Positions 2,016 to 15,587 of a stretch of DNA of 35,536 nucleotides are shown here, piece by piece. The position numbers and the translations under genes were made by a program. The notes under the pieces are model-generated. The model made no database searches, was not told where the DNA came from, and saw only the letters and a list, made by a program, of their open reading frames with translations. Each line of letters begins with the position of its first letter. The stretch's first letter is position 1. This DNA comes from an uncultured Gammaproteobacteria bacterium (GTDB lineage Bacteria > Patescibacteriota > Patescibacteriia > Magasanikbacterales > UBA922): the NCBI GenBank assembly GCA_964496615.1, contig CAZCAB010000001.1, positions 1-35,536 of the forward strand, given 5' to 3'.

Positions 2016-2513
2016 TTAGCCGCATGTGATTCCATGAAAATCGCGATAGCGCAGGTTCTCCACCAGATCTTGAAGGGTACCGTGCAAGCGAAGCACTTGC
2101 CGACCACCCGCCTTTCTGGTGCGGTTTAGCACAATCACGACAACGAACACCGAGCCGCGTTGACTCTTGACGCGAACATCAGTACGGCCTCCATTGACGC
2201 CGCGCCGTGCAAGCGCCTCCTCAATCGCATCCTCTACTCGGCGAGCAGAACTCACCTTTGGTAGGGATACGCGATCTGATGCTTCTGACTCCTTCCTCCA
2301 GGTGCCAGCAAGAATCTGCGCACGACTCGTTTCGCGAGCGGGATGTGCTGACTTGCGTGCGTCCAGCTCTTCCCTGCCCGCTTGGGTCAATTCTCCTTCC
2401 GGTGTCAGCCACCCCTTCTTCACAGCATGGGCGACTTCTTGGTTGTACGAAGAAAAGGCTCCAAAGGGAGTCCTCAGGGCCTCATCCCATACAGGTGTGC
2501 CGTTGTTACTCAA
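2016..2513 (-). CDS. Orphan hypothetical protein (165 aa from TTG 2513; the track ORF extends to 2531), GC-rich
   Basis: SD GAGGAGG (2523-2529) lies 9 nt before TTG 2513. G at codon position 1 is 67/165 by hand count, which is coding-like. No family recognised; KKGWLTPEGELTQAGREEL is vaguely wHTH-like. Confidence 0.5.
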   Translation of the reverse strand: MSNNGTPVWDEALRTPFGAFSSYNQEVAHAVKKGWLTPEGELTQAGREELDARKSAHPARETSRAQILAGTWRKESEASDRVSLPKVSSARRVEDAIEEALARRGVNGGRTDVRVKSQRGSVFVVVIVLNRTRKAGGRQVLRLHGTLQDLVENLRYRDFHGITCG

Positions 2514-2581
2514 TCTGCAGTTCCTCCTCAATTTCTGGCATATAGGACGGCGTACCTATAGCCGACGTATCCACTCTATTC

Positions 2582-2639: not shown

Positions 2640-2668
2640 TTGACGACTTGAAAAACCCATGATATTAT
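2640..2668 (+). promoter_or_regulatory. Near-consensus sigma70 promoter of the GC-rich plus-strand unit
   Basis: TTGACG (2640-2645), 17-nt spacer, TATTAT (2663-2668). Confidence 0.6.
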
Positions 2669-2675
2669 CTAGCCT

Positions 2676-3150
2676 AATGTCGTCGGATTGGCCGGTGACA
2701 CCTGCAAAGGAGAGGGGGCTTGAGCGTCTTCGCTCGGCTCCTCGCCCTCCTATGTGCACTCATGGCGCGTCCAGCGCCAGCGCAGGAGGAGACTCCTACG
2801 ACGAGAGCACCGGGGCAGGTGAGGAGACCACGGCCCCGAGGTCGCAACCACGCATGTGCCACGTTCCCTCGCTGGATCTGGTACAGAAGGTTGCTCCTTC
2901 GGGTCTGTACCAACGGCTAGGAGCCCATGCTCTTGGCCGCATCAGACATCACAAGGAGATAAAACAAACCCTCGTGGAAGAGGATGGTTCGCGACGTAGT
3001 AAGCAGCGCATCAGACGCACAGACTTATTGGACAGTCGCCACACCACAGAACAACGCACAGGGATGGGGGGACAGGAGGACAACAGACCGCCTTCCACTC
3101 ATTGACCTGTTCAATCTGGACAGATCAATGAGGAGGCGGTTTTGTTTTTT
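2676..3150 (+). ncRNA. Candidate structured ncRNA of unknown class (about 470 nt, GC-rich); a leaderless 142-aa ORF (2677..3105) is the alternative reading
   Basis: Bounded by the promoter at 2640-2668 and the terminator at 3088-3150. Dense strong hairpins include GGUACAGA...CC(UUCG)GG...UCUGUACC (2880-2911), the 10-bp GGCUAGGAGC-CCAU-GCUCUUGGCC (2915-2938) and a GGAG-GAGA-CUCC GNRA loop. The open frames show no codon-position bias by hand count. No RNase P, tmRNA, SRP or tRNA motifs found. Confidence 0.4.
3088..3150 (+). terminator. Rho-independent terminator of the GC-rich plus-strand unit
   Basis: Long imperfect hairpin with CCGCCT/AGGCGG and CTCATTGA/TCAATGAG arms (3088-3139), followed by TTTTGTTTTTT (3140-3150). 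Confidence 0.7.
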
Positions 3151-3178: not shown

Positions 3179-3649
3179 ATGCTCAGTTTCACCATCATAT
3201 CAGTCGGCAAACTCAAAGAATCATATTGGAGGGAAGCACAAAAAGAATACGCAAAAAGGCTTTCATCTTTTTGTCATATGAACATTGTCGAACTCAAAGA
3301 GGAAAAAAATGATGGAAAAAGTAATCGAGAATCAGTTCAAAAGAAAGAAGCGCAAAAAATACTCAAAGTGATTCCAAAAAATGACTATGTGATCACGCTT
3401 GATCCAGAAGGTCAATCCTACACGTCCCAAAAACTCAGTTCATATATTGAACTACTCACGCACGAAGTGAGCTCAATTTCGTTCATTATTGGAGGCCCAC
3501 TTGGTTTACATAAAAAAATACTGAGTCAATCAAAAAAGAGCATATCGCTCTCTTCTTTTACTTTTACGCATCAAATGGCGCGCATTATCCTTCTTGAACA
3601 ACTGTACAGAGCCTTCATGATTTCAAACAACAGACCGTACCACCACTAA
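3179..3649 (+). CDS. rlmH: 23S rRNA (pseudouridine1915-N3)-methyltransferase RlmH (SPOUT)
   Basis: 156 aa. Contains FIIGGPLGL, FTFTHQMARIILLEQLYRAF and a C-terminal RPYHH, typical of the YbeA/RlmH family. Confidence 0.9.
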   Translation: MLSFTIISVGKLKESYWREAQKEYAKRLSSFCHMNIVELKEEKNDGKSNRESVQKKEAQKILKVIPKNDYVITLDPEGQSYTSQKLSSYIELLTHEVSSISFIIGGPLGLHKKILSQSKKSISLSSFTFTHQMARIILLEQLYRAFMISNNRPYHH

Positions 3650-11774: not shown

Positions 11775-13049
11775 TTACTTGTGGAGTGCTAGTGCACAAG
11801 TCACTGATAGCAACATCAGCCCTATCGGGAGTGAAACGTAATAATGATCGAGAAGAACAATTGGGGTGATACTCAGAAGCAGAACTGATTCATATGACAA
11901 ACGATTCATTTGTGAAAGAAAACGTATGCCTGTTATGCAGATGACCATAAATAGTGCAAATCCGACAATCCCTAATTCGACTAAAAACAGCGCAAGCGCA
12001 TTATGAACTGGTTGATACTCCCACGGCTGATATTCTGGTCGCGTGTGCTGGAGTGCGCTTGTATACTGAGCAGGACCAACACCAAAAAATGGTTCACTGA
12101 TTAAAAGTTGTTTTGCATCTTCAAGTGCACTCCCCCGCTCACTTACCGAGGCAACTTCATGAGGTGATTGCACAGAAAAACGCGTGTGTACAAGCGGTGC
12201 GTTAAGAAGTAACATAAAAATGCACGTAATGCCAACTATGTACACCAAACGTCGCTGCACAACTGATCTTGCAACAAAAGAAAAAAGGAGTAAAAGTAAA
12301 AGCGAAAGCCAAGCACTTCTACTAAAACTCAGTATCAGTGAAATACTGCATAGTACTACCACCACATACACCCACGATGGAACATGCTCTTTCTCTATCT
12401 GAATTGAAAAAAGGGCAATCAGCACACTCACCATATACCCACCAAGAATGTTTGGGTGTGGGAAGCTCCCGTATGCACGCAACCATCGTCCAATGGTGTC
12501 TGATTGGATCACTGAGGTCCCTGGTTGCAAGAGCGGATGCTCAGCAAGTCCAAAGAGAGTTGATCCAACGGTAAGCTGGTTTGAAAATTGCCAAATGCTC
12601 AGCAGTGCTGGGATGATCGAACCTAAAATAAACCACCGAACCATTTTCCGTTTATCAATTCCAGAAAAAGAAATGGTGAGAAACAAAAGAACTGCTGACA
12701 AAAAGCGAAGTGCCCATTGCACACCGACATCAACTGAGGGTGATGTATATGCTCGTATATATACATATATAATGATTACAAACAAAGCTAAAATGAATTG
12801 TCGATCAATACTCCACTGAAATGCGATCGACTCTTTTTCCTTAATGATCCTCCGTGCACTTCGGTGCATGTACGCGAGGATAACGAGCCACAAAAGAAAC
12901 TCCCATACATACCACGATATCGTTGCATACTGCCAGACATGTCCATGAATCATCCCTTCTTGTATGATATATACGGTCTGCCATGGCAGCAAAAAAAGTA
13001 GGAGGCACATCAACTTTTCAAAAAATAAGTTGGATATATTTTTTCTCAT
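11775..13049 (-). CDS. O-antigen ligase/polymerase family (Wzy_C-like) polytopic membrane protein
   Basis: 424 aa with about 10 or more hydrophobic segments and the Wzy_C-type motif FSRSAWLSLLLLLL. Confidence 0.7.
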   Translation of the reverse strand: MRKNISNLFFEKLMCLLLFLLPWQTVYIIQEGMIHGHVWQYATISWYVWEFLLWLVILAYMHRSARRIIKEKESIAFQWSIDRQFILALFVIIIYVYIRAYTSPSVDVGVQWALRFLSAVLLFLTISFSGIDKRKMVRWFILGSIIPALLSIWQFSNQLTVGSTLFGLAEHPLLQPGTSVIQSDTIGRWLRAYGSFPHPNILGGYMVSVLIALFSIQIEKEHVPSWVYVVVVLCSISLILSFSRSAWLSLLLLLLFSFVARSVVQRRLVYIVGITCIFMLLLNAPLVHTRFSVQSPHEVASVSERGSALEDAKQLLISEPFFGVGPAQYTSALQHTRPEYQPWEYQPVHNALALFLVELGIVGFALFMVICITGIRFLSQMNRLSYESVLLLSITPIVLLDHYYVSLPIGLMLLSVTCALALHK

Positions 13050-13981
13050 ACAATTTGATGGGCACGACAGACCATTTGCCAGAGCTTTCGATAATGGGCA
13101 CGACGATCGTTCTCATGAAATTTAAGCATGGTATCAGAAATAACGACTCTGGTATCAGGCTCATGCTGGATACTCCCGGTATTTTGTGCCATCCTATGCA
13201 TTTGATACGTCTTTGCCTTCTTGTCAAACAGATCGAACAAAACGGCCGGCAGTCGCTCCACCCACTTCTGGACTAAACTCTGAGAAGTCTGCCAATCGTG
13301 CGATGGATTTTTCTGTGTATCTGCATGAGGCAGAGCAAACTTAAGCCAGTGATTCGCAGCACGCACGCGTGCATACGTCTTATGTGAATCAAAAAGTGGA
13401 ATAAGATGCGTGAGCCAATACACTAAATAGATATCATCTCGTGAAAGCGCAATATCTGCTAAGTTTAACCGCTCATCACTAATATAGAAACTCAAACATA
13501 TTTTATCTCTCACATCATCTTTTGATCTTCGCATCTTAAAAAGCTCAAGCATACTAGTAACAAGCAAACGACCAATCCACATTCTCCCGTGCTTTAAGAC
13601 AATGAAAAAATCAATATCGCTCTGATCCTTAGGGACTCCAAATGAAACCGTATTACATAGATACACACCACGAACAAATGGAATGTATGATAATAGTCTG
13701 GCAGCTCGTTTTGCAATACGCATCTTTTTTTCAGCAATAAGAAGACGCTCCCTCCTCTCGTTGACAATAGAAGATCGTCCCGGTAGAAAAAAATGGCCCC
13801 ACAGAGATTCAACAACTCCTGAATCCTTCAATATATCCAAACCTTGAATGAATGAGGAAAAAGAAATTTTCTTTGCATCCCATAGCAGTCGGTACAGCTC
13901 TTCCTTGGTAAGCGCGTAATCAAAAACATCAAAAAAAGCGAGTGTCTGTAGAACCGATTTTCGAAAGGAAGCTCCATCCAT
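13046..13981 (-). CDS. Hypothetical protein, possibly nucleotidyltransferase-fold; start trimmed from the 495-aa track ORF
   Basis: ATG 13981 (MDGASFRKSVLQTLAFFDVFDY...) lies 8 nt after TACACT. Contains SFGVPKDQSDIDFFIV. ATGA overlap with the downstream gene. The upstream 184 codons of the track ORF read through the GC-rich island in another frame. Confidence 0.6.
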   Translation of the reverse strand: MDGASFRKSVLQTLAFFDVFDYALTKEELYRLLWDAKKISFSSFIQGLDILKDSGVVESLWGHFFLPGRSSIVNERRERLLIAEKKMRIAKRAARLLSYIPFVRGVYLCNTVSFGVPKDQSDIDFFIVLKHGRMWIGRLLVTSMLELFKMRRSKDDVRDKICLSFYISDERLNLADIALSRDDIYLVYWLTHLIPLFDSHKTYARVRAANHWLKFALPHADTQKNPSHDWQTSQSLVQKWVERLPAVLFDLFDKKAKTYQMHRMAQNTGSIQHEPDTRVVISDTMLKFHENDRRAHYRKLWQMVCRAHQIV

Positions 13982-14007
13982 ATATTCTGAGTGTACCTGA
14001 TTTTCGT

Positions 14008-14033
14008 ACAAAACAAAAATCGCCCAAGGCGAT
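14008..14033 (-). terminator. Intrinsic terminator
   Basis: ATCGCC-ttg-GGCGAT followed by TTTTTGTTTTG on the minus strand. Confidence 0.65.
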
Positions 14034-14042
14034 ATTTTTATG

Positions 14043-14081
14043 CCCCCGCCCACCTCGACCTTTCGGTGAGGTGGGCGGGGG
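14043..14081. other. Very strong GC hairpin at the 3' end of the 99-aa cassette
   Basis: CCCCCGCCCACCTC / GAGGTGGGCGGGGG, a 14-bp perfect stem, with an inner ACC-GAAA-GGT on the minus strand. There is no adjacent U-tract; the canonical terminator follows 10 nt later. Confidence 0.7.
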
Positions 14082-14133
14082 TCGTTGGTTCTGCTGCCCC
14101 CAATGATGTCGGATCTCAGCGCTGGGGCGGCTA

Positions 14134-14433
14134 CTACTCGCTGACCTGCAGGTAGCCGGCCCGCTCCTCGGCGTTGTAGAAGCCCTCGACGCGGAGACCG
14201 CCGACGGGCATGCCCTCGATCGCGTTCATGAGGTTCCCACGGATGCAGAACATCCCGCGAGAGCCGGACTCGTAGCTGAGTCCGGTAATCTGCACGACCA
14301 CCTGACCGGTCTCGTGCGAGGTCTCGAACGTCGCGGTCGCGCCACGGGGATCGAAAGCGCGTGCGAACGCGTCGAGGATGTCGGGCGTCGAGGGGTTCAG
14401 GGGGTTCTTGAGAATGTCGATCCTGACCTTCAT
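14134..14433 (-). CDS. Orphan 99-aa protein with high-GC codon usage (MKVRIDILKNPLNPSTPDILDAFARAFDPRG...YLQVSE)
   Basis: SD GGAGGA (14438-14443) lies 4 nt before ATG 14433. About 88 of 99 codons end in G or C and 38/99 start with G (hand counts). Double stop TAGTAG. No family recognised. Confidence 0.65.
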   Translation of the reverse strand: MKVRIDILKNPLNPSTPDILDAFARAFDPRGATATFETSHETGQVVVQITGLSYESGSRGMFCIRGNLMNAIEGMPVGGLRVEGFYNAEERAGYLQVSE

Positions 14434-14488
14434 GTGCTCCTCCATGCGGCTGAAAGTGATATGCTGGCACCGCAAGACCAGACAACAG

Positions 14489-14517
14489 ACTATACCACAT
14501 AAAAGGAAATTTGTCAA
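14489..14517 (-). promoter_or_regulatory. Consensus promoter of the 99-aa cassette
   Basis: TTGACA (14512-14517), 17-nt spacer, TATAGT (14489-14494), followed by a 5' leader of about 55 nt. Confidence 0.65.
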
Positions 14518-14519
14518 TA

Positions 14520-14548
14520 CTAAAATACCCCAAATGTGGGGTATTTTC
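14520..14548. terminator. Intrinsic terminator after the PRC-barrel gene
   Basis: ATACCCCA-(4 nt)-TGGGGTAT flanked by A and T runs. Confidence 0.7.
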
Positions 14549-14565
14549 CCTTAACTTAGATCTTT

Positions 14566-14856
14566 TTACTCTCTCATTGCCACTGGCTCAGCATCTGTTT
14601 TAGGTATAACCGAGACGGTTCCCGTTCCTTCAGCCTTTTTAACCGCATCATCCACGATGATCTTGTCGTCTGAGATGCTTTTTATCTGAGTAGGTGAAAT
14701 CAATATACCTCCAGCAGCTATAGGAAATGGTCGAACCCGATAGTTTACGATGGTATGTGCCTCGCTATCAAACTCGCAATCACGGATCTTCCCCAACATC
14801 ACACCACTCTGTGTCTCAACTTTCTTTCTTTTCAGTTGTGATAGCAAAATGCGCAT
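14566..14856 (-). CDS. PRC-barrel domain protein (YlmC/YmxH-like)
   Basis: 96 aa; GVMLGKIRDCEFDSEAHTIVNYRV is typical of small PRC-barrel proteins. Lies directly downstream of yidC. Confidence 0.6.
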   Translation of the reverse strand: MRILLSQLKRKKVETQSGVMLGKIRDCEFDSEAHTIVNYRVRPFPIAAGGILISPTQIKSISDDKIIVDDAVKKAEGTGTVSVIPKTDAEPVAMRE

Positions 14857-14858
14857 AG

Positions 14859-15587
14859 CTATGACACAACCTCAGCCTGGGGTTTCTTCTTTTTGAACAA
14901 AAGTTTTTGTTGCAGTGCAGTGAGAAGTGTCGACAAGAACCAATACAGCATCACACCACCTGGAAGTTGTAATCCAATCAAGATGGTAATAAACGGCATG
15001 AAATACAGCATCTGCTTGTTCATCATTGCCATCATACTCTCATCTTTACCACCCTCACCAGCAGCCTTTGGTGGTTTCTTTTTATGAAACATCTTTGCTT
15101 GCCAATATTGCGCAGCCGCAGCCAGTAGCGCCAGTGGAATACTCGCAACTGACAGATCGACAATACCAAGAGCAATCGGATTCAGCTCACCCGGGTTTGC
15201 AACGAACGGATAGAGAATATCAAAGTTGGTGGTAGTAAGACCATCACGAAGTACCCAATAGAGTGCAAGAAAAATGGGAAGTTGCACGAGAATAGGAAGA
15301 CATGAACCAAATGGATTCACCTTATTTTCCTTGTACAATTTCATGGTCTCCTGCGCAAGGGTCTGCTGATCGTCTTTATACTTCTTCTTGAGTTCATCCA
15401 TCTTTGGTTGAAGCTCAGTTAAAGATTTTTGTGCCTTGATCGAAGATCCGGTAAGCGGATACAGAGCAAGTTTAATAAGAACGGTCAAAACAAAAATAAC
15501 AATACCCATATCGGGTATTACATTGTACAACGCGATCAATGCATTGAAGATCGGCTCATACAATACTGTATGGAAAAGTTCTTTCAT
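14859..15587 (-). CDS. yidC: Membrane protein insertase YidC (short form)
   Basis: KMDELKKKYKDDQQ, NPFGSCLPILVQLPIFLALYWVL and a basic C-terminal tail. ATG 15587 lies 9 nt after TGaTATACT. Confidence 0.9.
   Translation of the reverse strand: MKELFHTVLYEPIFNALIALYNVIPDMGIVIFVLTVLIKLALYPLTGSSIKAQKSLTELQPKMDELKKKYKDDQQTLAQETMKLYKENKVNPFGSCLPILVQLPIFLALYWVLRDGLTTTNFDILYPFVANPGELNPIALGIVDLSVASIPLALLAAAAQYWQAKMFHKKKPPKAAGEGGKDESMMAMMNKQMLYFMPFITILIGLQLPGGVMLYWFLSTLLTALQQKLLFKKKKPQAEVVS

Follow-up and report, generated by a model that had tools for sequence, protein, structure and literature searches.

Why should a single short gene carry G or C at the third position of 88 of its 99 codons in a DNA that is 44% GC overall, and where could such a gene have come from? 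The question is raised by contig CAZCAB010000001.1 of assembly GCA_964496615.1, of which positions 1 to 35,536 were analysed and are called the window here. The gene lies on the reverse strand at 14134-14433 and encodes a protein of 99 amino acids. An earlier note, made from the sequence of the window, had put forward the hypothesis that it derives from a high-GC actinobacterial host and was placed under a strong local promoter. Our preferred reading, held with confidence and doubt in equal measure, is that it is a self-contained small-protein cassette of Patescibacteria, laterally inserted, GC-rich as a hallmark of its family, and patescibacterial in its immediate source. The GC-richness is found in members of the family in many independent low-GC genomes and is not private to this locus, which a single donation by a host would leave unexplained. 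Because the excess of GC at third codon positions (GC3) marks the transcribed unit in many genomes, the gene most likely came directly from another Patescibacterium, or from an element that circulates within this group, and not from an actinobacterial host. Either the GC-richness has been imported repeatedly from an unsampled high-GC pool or it is actively maintained. The locus itself is an ordinary-looking horizontally acquired orphan gene; it is the family, with its recurrent GC-richness, that is not ordinary.

The gene, its product and its family

The GC content of the 99-codon open reading frame (ORF) is 0.61, 0.44 and 0.89 at codon positions 1, 2 and 3. Its third positions hold C 55 times, G 33 times, T 9 times and A twice; the hand count in the earlier note, about 88 codons ending in G or C, is exactly right. 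The 28 native genes of the window have a mean GC3 of 0.393 (standard deviation 0.036, range 0.32-0.48), which puts the ORF at z = 13.6, and no 99-codon stretch within those genes exceeds 0.525. By dinucleotide signature the departure is no more than moderate (delta* 0.177, rank 18 of 314 native windows). As RNA, the coding sequence (CDS) folds no better than shuffled versions of itself (z = -1.0), which, taken with the three-base periodicity of its GC content, shows that the region is coding and not structured RNA. Consistent with this, Rfam returned nothing meaningful at gathering thresholds over the whole window or in permissive mode over 13900-14650, and a tRNA/tmRNA scan of the window found none. 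The periodicity, the existence of relatives with common motifs and a confident structural model together establish the ORF as a genuine protein gene. A spurious open frame of 495 amino acids (13046-14533, reverse strand) runs from the neighbouring 314-amino-acid gene up through the cassette in another frame. Neither the 99- nor the 314-amino-acid product is on record in an exact-sequence look-up, probably because gene callers fuse or extend ORFs through the GC-rich stretch, as the 495-amino-acid frame suggests.

A word-indexed search with the single protein found no homologue. Only an exhaustive HMMER search over 1.84 billion cluster representatives succeeded, recovering 33 relatives (clusters), most of them 89-136 amino acids long, the best 54% identical to the window protein. 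The earlier note could place the protein in no family; by sequence comparison it belongs to a rare, previously undescribed one. The family is characterized by a length of about 90-135 amino acids, three motifs, NPS..D.(I/L)DAF..A(F/Y)D, TGL.YESG..GMF and GFYNA..R.G.L, and a predicted strand-helix-five-strand topology, all of which the window protein has. P14, A26, G84, Y86 and G93 are invariant in the alignment, and I7, A22, Y54, E55, S56 and G60 nearly so. Four long proteins among the matches (P0016, P0021, P0022 and P0033) were judged spurious, because their match comes down to 30-45 residues in repeats like DAFVAALDP and TPEIVDAFSVSFD.

AlphaFold2 given the family alignment predicts the strand-helix-five-strand fold with a predicted local distance difference test (pLDDT) score of 93.8 and a predicted template modelling (pTM) score of 0.85; from the single sequence the pLDDT is 43. 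The product is a small alpha+beta protein of about 11 kDa in which inspection of the sequence reveals no signal peptide or membrane segment. Searches of Pfam, NCBIfam, PHROGs and PADLOC with the query and all 30 aligned members gave isolated sub-threshold matches only, and the best match in a sequence-profile search of the PDB had E = 0.17. For assignment to a structural class we asked for a Foldseek E-value of at most 1e-3 with a TM score above 0.5 on a confident model; the best values were E = 0.028 in the PDB and E = 0.077 in BFVD. The closest structural likeness is to the partly open beta-barrel of CBF-beta (1io4_D, 3wts_G), also a small alpha+beta half-barrel, with a TM score of about 0.52 over about 103 columns, but E-values of 0.03-0.1, 10% identity and a root-mean-square deviation of 5-6 A give no evidence of homology or shared function. 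No relatives were found in phage and plasmid collections (tblastn) or in IMG/VR, and a literature search found nothing on the family or on its GC pattern. The results thus define a new family of small proteins, whose fold is predicted with confidence, whose cassette follows a fixed design and whose base composition is striking.

The family occurs, as far as sources can be named, only in Patescibacteria, the affiliation of every member with identifiable taxonomy. We examined the DNA context of 15 further family loci, part of them retrieved with a profile from a 9-sequence subset of the alignment, for a total of 16 with the window; these loci are designated by L numbers. L082 and L083 come from Ca. 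Saccharimonadales. L087 belongs to Ca. Saccharibacteria by its DnaK (88-91% identity), and L095 and L097 follow by synteny. L099 comes from a "Patescibacteria group bacterium" (GCA_004299275.1) with 59% GC.

The cassette and its GC-rich predicted transcript

The earlier note had described the gene as part of a cassette, and this is borne out: it is a complete transcription unit, whose promoter, Shine-Dalgarno (SD) sequence, TAGTAG stops, hairpin and flanking terminators all lie where that note had put them. From the upstream to the downstream border, the features are as follows.

14522-14547, no strand assigned: native AT-rich bidirectional terminator hairpin, an inverted repeat with 11-bp arms AAAATACCCCA / TGGGGTATTTT
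14489-14517, reverse strand: sigma-70-type promoter TTGACA-N17-TATAGT with extended -10 TG, found by scan, 11 of 12 consensus matches
14434-14482, reverse strand: 5' leader of about 49 nt, 57% GC, with a predicted transcription start near 14482
14438-14443, reverse strand: SD sequence GGAGGA, 4 nt before the ATG
14134-14433, reverse strand: 99-codon CDS with the first TAG stop; a second TAG is at 14131-14133
14082-14133, reverse strand: 3' untranslated spacer including the second TAG, 62% GC
14043-14081, reverse strand: perfect 14-bp G+C hairpin, arms 14043-14056 and 14068-14081, 11-nt loop, no U-tail
14009-14033, no strand assigned: native terminator ATCGCCTTGGGCGAT TTTTGTTTT, hairpin 14019-14033 plus T-run, found by terminator scan

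The upstream terminator ends a PRC-barrel gene, and the downstream one stands just before the conserved 314-amino-acid gene (13046-13990). Between them GC content changes abruptly, from 28% in the promoter to 57% in the leader, 65% in the CDS, 62% in the 3' spacer and 77% in the hairpin, and then to 11% in the next 9 nt, so that the GC-rich zone has sharp edges and coincides with the predicted transcript. The hairpin that closes the zone, present in a single copy in the window, is probably a 3' stabilizer or terminator stem of the cassette; it drives the fold of the whole transcript to z = -3.7. In the leader, the stem UGCGG(U)/(G)CCGCA (14469-14474 with 14445-14450) lies directly 5' of the SD sequence. 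RNAalifold recovers this hairpin from the window, L093, L098, L099 and L092, with five of nine pairs kept by two-sided changes. An inverted-repeat scan found no target-site duplication or terminal inverted repeat around the cassette.

The family loci that have flanking sequence are all built alike: a consensus promoter is followed by a structured leader, the last hairpin of which adjoins a strong SD sequence, and then by the ORF. A GC hairpin follows the stop codon in most loci and is clear in L087, L088, L090, L094, L095, L097, L098, L099, L103 and L104. The promoter, leader and SD sequence therefore belong to the cassette, and the idea that the gene was put under a local promoter does not hold. 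In every locus the gene stands alone among housekeeping genes (clpB/nusA, dnaK, map/adk, rplT/infC, rplS, leuS, tRNAs); no neighbour recurs among the 16 loci, apart from local synteny among L087, L095 and L097 and between L092 and L093. With no conserved adjacent partner gene, it does not form a toxin-antitoxin or toxin-immunity pair.

The GC3 of the gene was compared with that of its own neighbours at each of the 16 loci.

Window: gene 0.89, neighbours 0.39
L087: gene 0.87-0.95, neighbours 0.45
L090: gene 0.85, neighbours 0.27
L093: gene 0.87, neighbours 0.44
L098: gene 0.80, neighbours about 0.38
L097: gene 0.88, neighbours about 0.6
L082: gene 0.77, neighbours 0.56
L092: gene 0.72, neighbours 0.44
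L095: gene 0.69, neighbours 0.48
L103: gene 0.55, neighbours about 0.37
L104: gene 0.58, neighbours 0.43
L099 (59% GC genome): gene 0.81, neighbours 0.63-0.78
L094: gene 0.57, neighbours 0.49
L102: gene 0.57, neighbours about 0.52
L088: gene 0.39-0.40, neighbours 0.35
L096: gene 0.42-0.44, neighbours 0.45 (gene 0.01-0.03 lower)

The gene exceeds its neighbours by at least 0.2 in nine of the 16 loci, two of which are positional orthologues in Saccharibacteria, and is clearly below them in none. The excess is seen also in positional orthologues whose flanking genes diverged long ago. The claim that such codon usage is incompatible with long residence in the genome is now doubtful, as the same excess recurs in most members, these orthologues included. 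A GC3 of 0.89-0.95 would call for a donor genome of roughly 66-72% GC; the 96 patescibacterial loci that were read span 28-59% GC. Sets of near-identical contigs (L082-L086, L090/L091 and L099-L101) have no substitutions inside the family gene.

Some loci show further features in or near the cassette. Leaders of a sub-clade with the motif GGPS..DAFKYAFD form three successive hairpins before the SD sequence (L082 5908-6003, L087 5975-6069, L097 378-469, L103 4908-5003), as do those of L094, L095 and L104. The first hairpin has a UGUAUG-like loop, followed by GGUGG, and the stem sequences differ between loci. No Rfam family matches this leader, which is a possible new cis-regulatory element; its covariation was judged mostly by eye, and of the three hairpins only the last gained support from RNAalifold, run on a rough alignment. 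A hint of translational control comes from L098 and L099, where a run of pyrimidines upstream is able to pair with the SD sequence. Four of the 16 loci have a tRNA gene no more than about 300 nt from the cassette (L088 5670-5743, L092 873-947, L093 167-241, L094 4702-4772). No integrase or shared neighbour stood out in the gene table of L088 and among cross-matching ORFs, which were inspected without a search directed at integrases.

Insertion and the origin of the GC-richness

The YidC protein of the window places it among Magasanikbacteria-type Patescibacteria, with the nearest species representative 71% identical. In related Magasanikbacteria loci that reach far enough, the order of YidC, the PRC-barrel gene (not always present), the 314-amino-acid gene and a Wzy-type gene is conserved, with a gap between YidC and the 314-amino-acid gene of usually 150-550 nt, and none of the 80 such loci that were fetched has a family member. 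Conserved synteny, the absence of the family from these loci and the sharp edges together show that the cassette was laterally inserted between the PRC-barrel gene and the 314-amino-acid gene, and so is foreign to this site, as the earlier note had held. Since the nearest relative is distant, synteny does not bound the age of the insertion.

Other unusual stretches occur in these genomes. The gap between YidC and the 314-amino-acid gene contains GC-rich stretches of other kinds in L008 (6881-8160), L038 (7221-7680) and L076 (6781-7460), at 56-60% GC within loci of 35-42%, so that foreign DNA may have settled in this intergenic site repeatedly. ORFs unrelated to the family, with GC3 of 0.72-0.86, are present in L033 (874-2193), L064 (10047-11618) and L081 (465-1067), loci of 41-49% GC; one has a weak PEGA-domain match. 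High-GC genes in relatives of the window are therefore not unique to the cassette family. Within the window, a 57% GC patch at 2016-2531 (reverse strand) holds an ORF of 171 amino acids, with 0.64, 0.50 and 0.56 GC at codon positions 1, 2 and 3, that was perhaps acquired as well; in Pfam it matches PF24409 (wHTH-PRTase associated) below threshold, with E = 1e-5 and 25.9 bits where the cut-off is 27. A second GC-rich island, at 2640-3150 (forward strand) next to rlmH (3179-3649), has about 60% GC and no codon periodicity. The sequence TTGACG-N17-TATTAT immediately upstream resembles a promoter, and the island ends in a hairpin with a T-run. Its fold of -206 kcal/mol (z = -5.05) is far better than that of shuffled sequences, and no Rfam match was found at E <= 1. 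This island is a candidate structured RNA of about 450 nt.

Two explanations of the cassette can be largely set aside. It is hardly credible that the locus is an artefact, whether an assembly chimera, a fragment of contaminating DNA or a structured, GC-rich RNA in which an ORF arose by chance. In favour of an artefact is the abrupt break in composition. Support for the junctions, which the earlier note had wanted from reads, comes instead from an independent Logan contig (SRR8146441) that is 100% identical over 13647-15381 and spans both, leaving no obvious chimera. The same succession of promoter, leader, ORF and hairpin recurs in low-GC housekeeping contexts of 15 other loci from other samples; conservation at the protein level, a model with a pLDDT of 94, the lack of an Rfam match and the unremarkable CDS fold (z = -1.0) likewise speak against an RNA with a chance ORF. 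Capture from a high-GC actinobacterial host by an epibiotic Patescibacterium, with the gene then set under a local promoter, is very improbable. The codon usage does resemble that of an organism of 65-70% GC, the GC hairpin lacks a U-tail, as is common for terminators in Actinobacteria, and the family has members in Saccharibacteria, which are known epibionts of Actinobacteria. But Actinobacteria are very heavily sequenced, and a family residing in such hosts would be expected to surface, yet none of the 33 small-protein relatives among the 1.84 billion representatives is named as actinobacterial. Many matches carry no taxonomy; among homologues of known source, none lies outside Patescibacteria. 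Moreover, the promoter, leader hairpin and SD sequence are conserved across loci, even in the 59% GC genome, and are no local addition.

There remain two accounts of the GC-richness, in both of which the gene entered the genome laterally. In one, which we rate higher while holding it only tentatively, the GC-richness is no scar of transfer and is actively maintained as a property of the family's transcription unit. In the other, possible and somewhat less probable, the gene is a plain relic, a recent import from an unsampled high-GC donor (a Patescibacterium or a mobile element) that has yet to ameliorate; the reservoir of the family would then be high-GC, and copies in low-GC genomes would be short-lived and so mostly caught young. 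Several observations weigh for the relic and against maintenance. L099, from the 59% GC Patescibacterium, is a nearly native member nested within the clade of the window gene, and the codons of the window gene fit the L099 table far better than the native one (-0.96 against -1.48 log units per codon). The excess of GC3 forms a continuum from 0 to +0.58, and GC at codon positions 1 and 2 and the GARP/FYMINK amino-acid content rise with it across members (r = 0.78 and 0.61); this is what one would expect of plain amelioration after import from a high-GC pool. GC-richness with sharp edges extends to the non-coding leader and 3' untranslated region, and unrelated high-GC3 genes occur in L033, L064 and L081. 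The distribution of the family is sporadic even in Saccharibacteria, where hundreds of close DnaK clusters compare with about 33 family clusters, so that a position beside dnaK could be a re-used insertion site and not a sign of common descent. Finally, any mechanism that maintains GC is hypothetical, and the CDS has no excess of RNA structure. Two points weigh against our preferred reading as a whole: about half of the family clusters lie on short contigs without taxonomy, so that a non-patescibacterial member is possible, and Pfam, NCBIfam, PHROGs, PADLOC, PDB and BFVD all fail to support a function by homology.

The difficulty for the relic lies in the depth of divergence. Under a two-state model with an equilibrium GC3 of 0.39, only about 0.03-0.08 changes from G or C to A or T per synonymous site can have occurred since import, yet identity to the closest relative is no more than 54%, and among the high-GC3 copies it is 35-55%. 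The relic account would thus require at least seven imports of equally recent date, each from a donor that is unsampled and distant from the other donors, and a GC3 of 0.89-0.95 is above that of the neighbours (0.63-0.78) in the only high-GC host seen. Three Saccharibacteria hold the gene at the same position on the side of dnaK. L087 and L097 share both flanks, with an upstream protein 68% identical and a convergent dnaK downstream, and L095 shares the dnaK (83-86%). Identity among the family proteins of these three loci is just 38-45%, and the GC3 of their genes is 0.95, 0.88 and 0.70, an excess that would have vanished by neutral decay from a common ancestor. We slightly favour a pressure on the whole transcript, for example for mRNA longevity, that keeps GC high, over an un-ameliorated relic. 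Under such maintenance the leader, ORF and 3' hairpin would be kept at 60-65% GC (GC3 0.8-0.95) in genomes of 38-50% GC over long times, presumably by selection on the transcript itself through stability, nuclease resistance or controlled translation.

Either outcome bears on how such genes are read. Few Patescibacteria have been cultured, and the greater part of their accessory genes lacks an explanation. If the GC-richness is no more than a scar of transfer, the family can serve to trace how genes move into ultra-small bacteria from high-GC lineages yet to be sampled, and it argues against the default reading of high-GC genes in epibionts as host-derived. If it is maintained, the family presents a rare case in bacteria of a gene-specific, heritable departure from genomic base composition under selection, and GC3 can be a misleading guide in the detection and dating of horizontal transfer. 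Recoding experiments may be within reach, since some Saccharibacteria can now be grown together with their hosts.

Possible function and comparison with known systems

Long-lived mRNAs classically combine a 5' stem beside the SD sequence with a GC-rich body and a very strong stem at the 3' end. With these and its strong promoter and SD sequence, the cassette would produce a long-lived, well-translated monocistronic mRNA, and the product is predicted to be soluble, a single alpha+beta domain of about 11 kDa, with no partner gene. That it acts stoichiometrically as a binder or neutralizer, of the immunity or anti-defence type, is our best guess, held with low confidence; it is suggested by the absence of a signal peptide, membrane segment and partner gene and by the faster evolution of the family protein relative to neighbouring genes. 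The conserved Y54-E55-S56, Y86 and R91 might equally form a small-ligand or catalytic site.

Orphan immunity and anti-defence proteins of the Acr/Ard kind are likewise about 100 amino acids long, cytoplasmic, without a partner, fast-evolving and sporadic, and have strong expression signals. Unlike them, the window protein has no match in PADLOC, PHROGs, Pfam, PDB or BFVD and no neighbouring toxin, aca-type regulator or mobile-element genes, and the resemblance is circumstantial only. The cassette is also distinct from an integron gene cassette: it has its own consensus promoter, its perfect 14-bp stem lacks the RYYYAAC / GTTRRRY core sites, and it stands in the window as a single copy and not in an array.

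Another point of comparison is horizontally transferred genes that have yet to ameliorate, in the sense of Lawrence and Ochman. The cassette shares with such genes an atypical GC3, sharp borders and a patchy distribution. It differs in that the excess is common to anciently diverged members (35-55% identity) across many recipient genomes and to positional orthologues, and in that no donor lineage of matching composition is known.

In design, the cassette is closest to a phage moron. Morons, described in lambdoid phages, are autonomous units of promoter, gene and terminator. The cassette, too, is an autonomous unit, in which one ORF has a sigma-70 promoter and a hairpin terminator of its own; it is set between genes that are adjacent in relatives, and it deviates from both neighbours in base composition. 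It lies, however, in a chromosomal neighbourhood of yidC, the PRC-barrel gene, miaA, the Wzy-type gene and groESL and not in a phage or prophage, matches nothing in phage, IMG/VR or PHROG collections, and has a compositional offset that recurs throughout its family.

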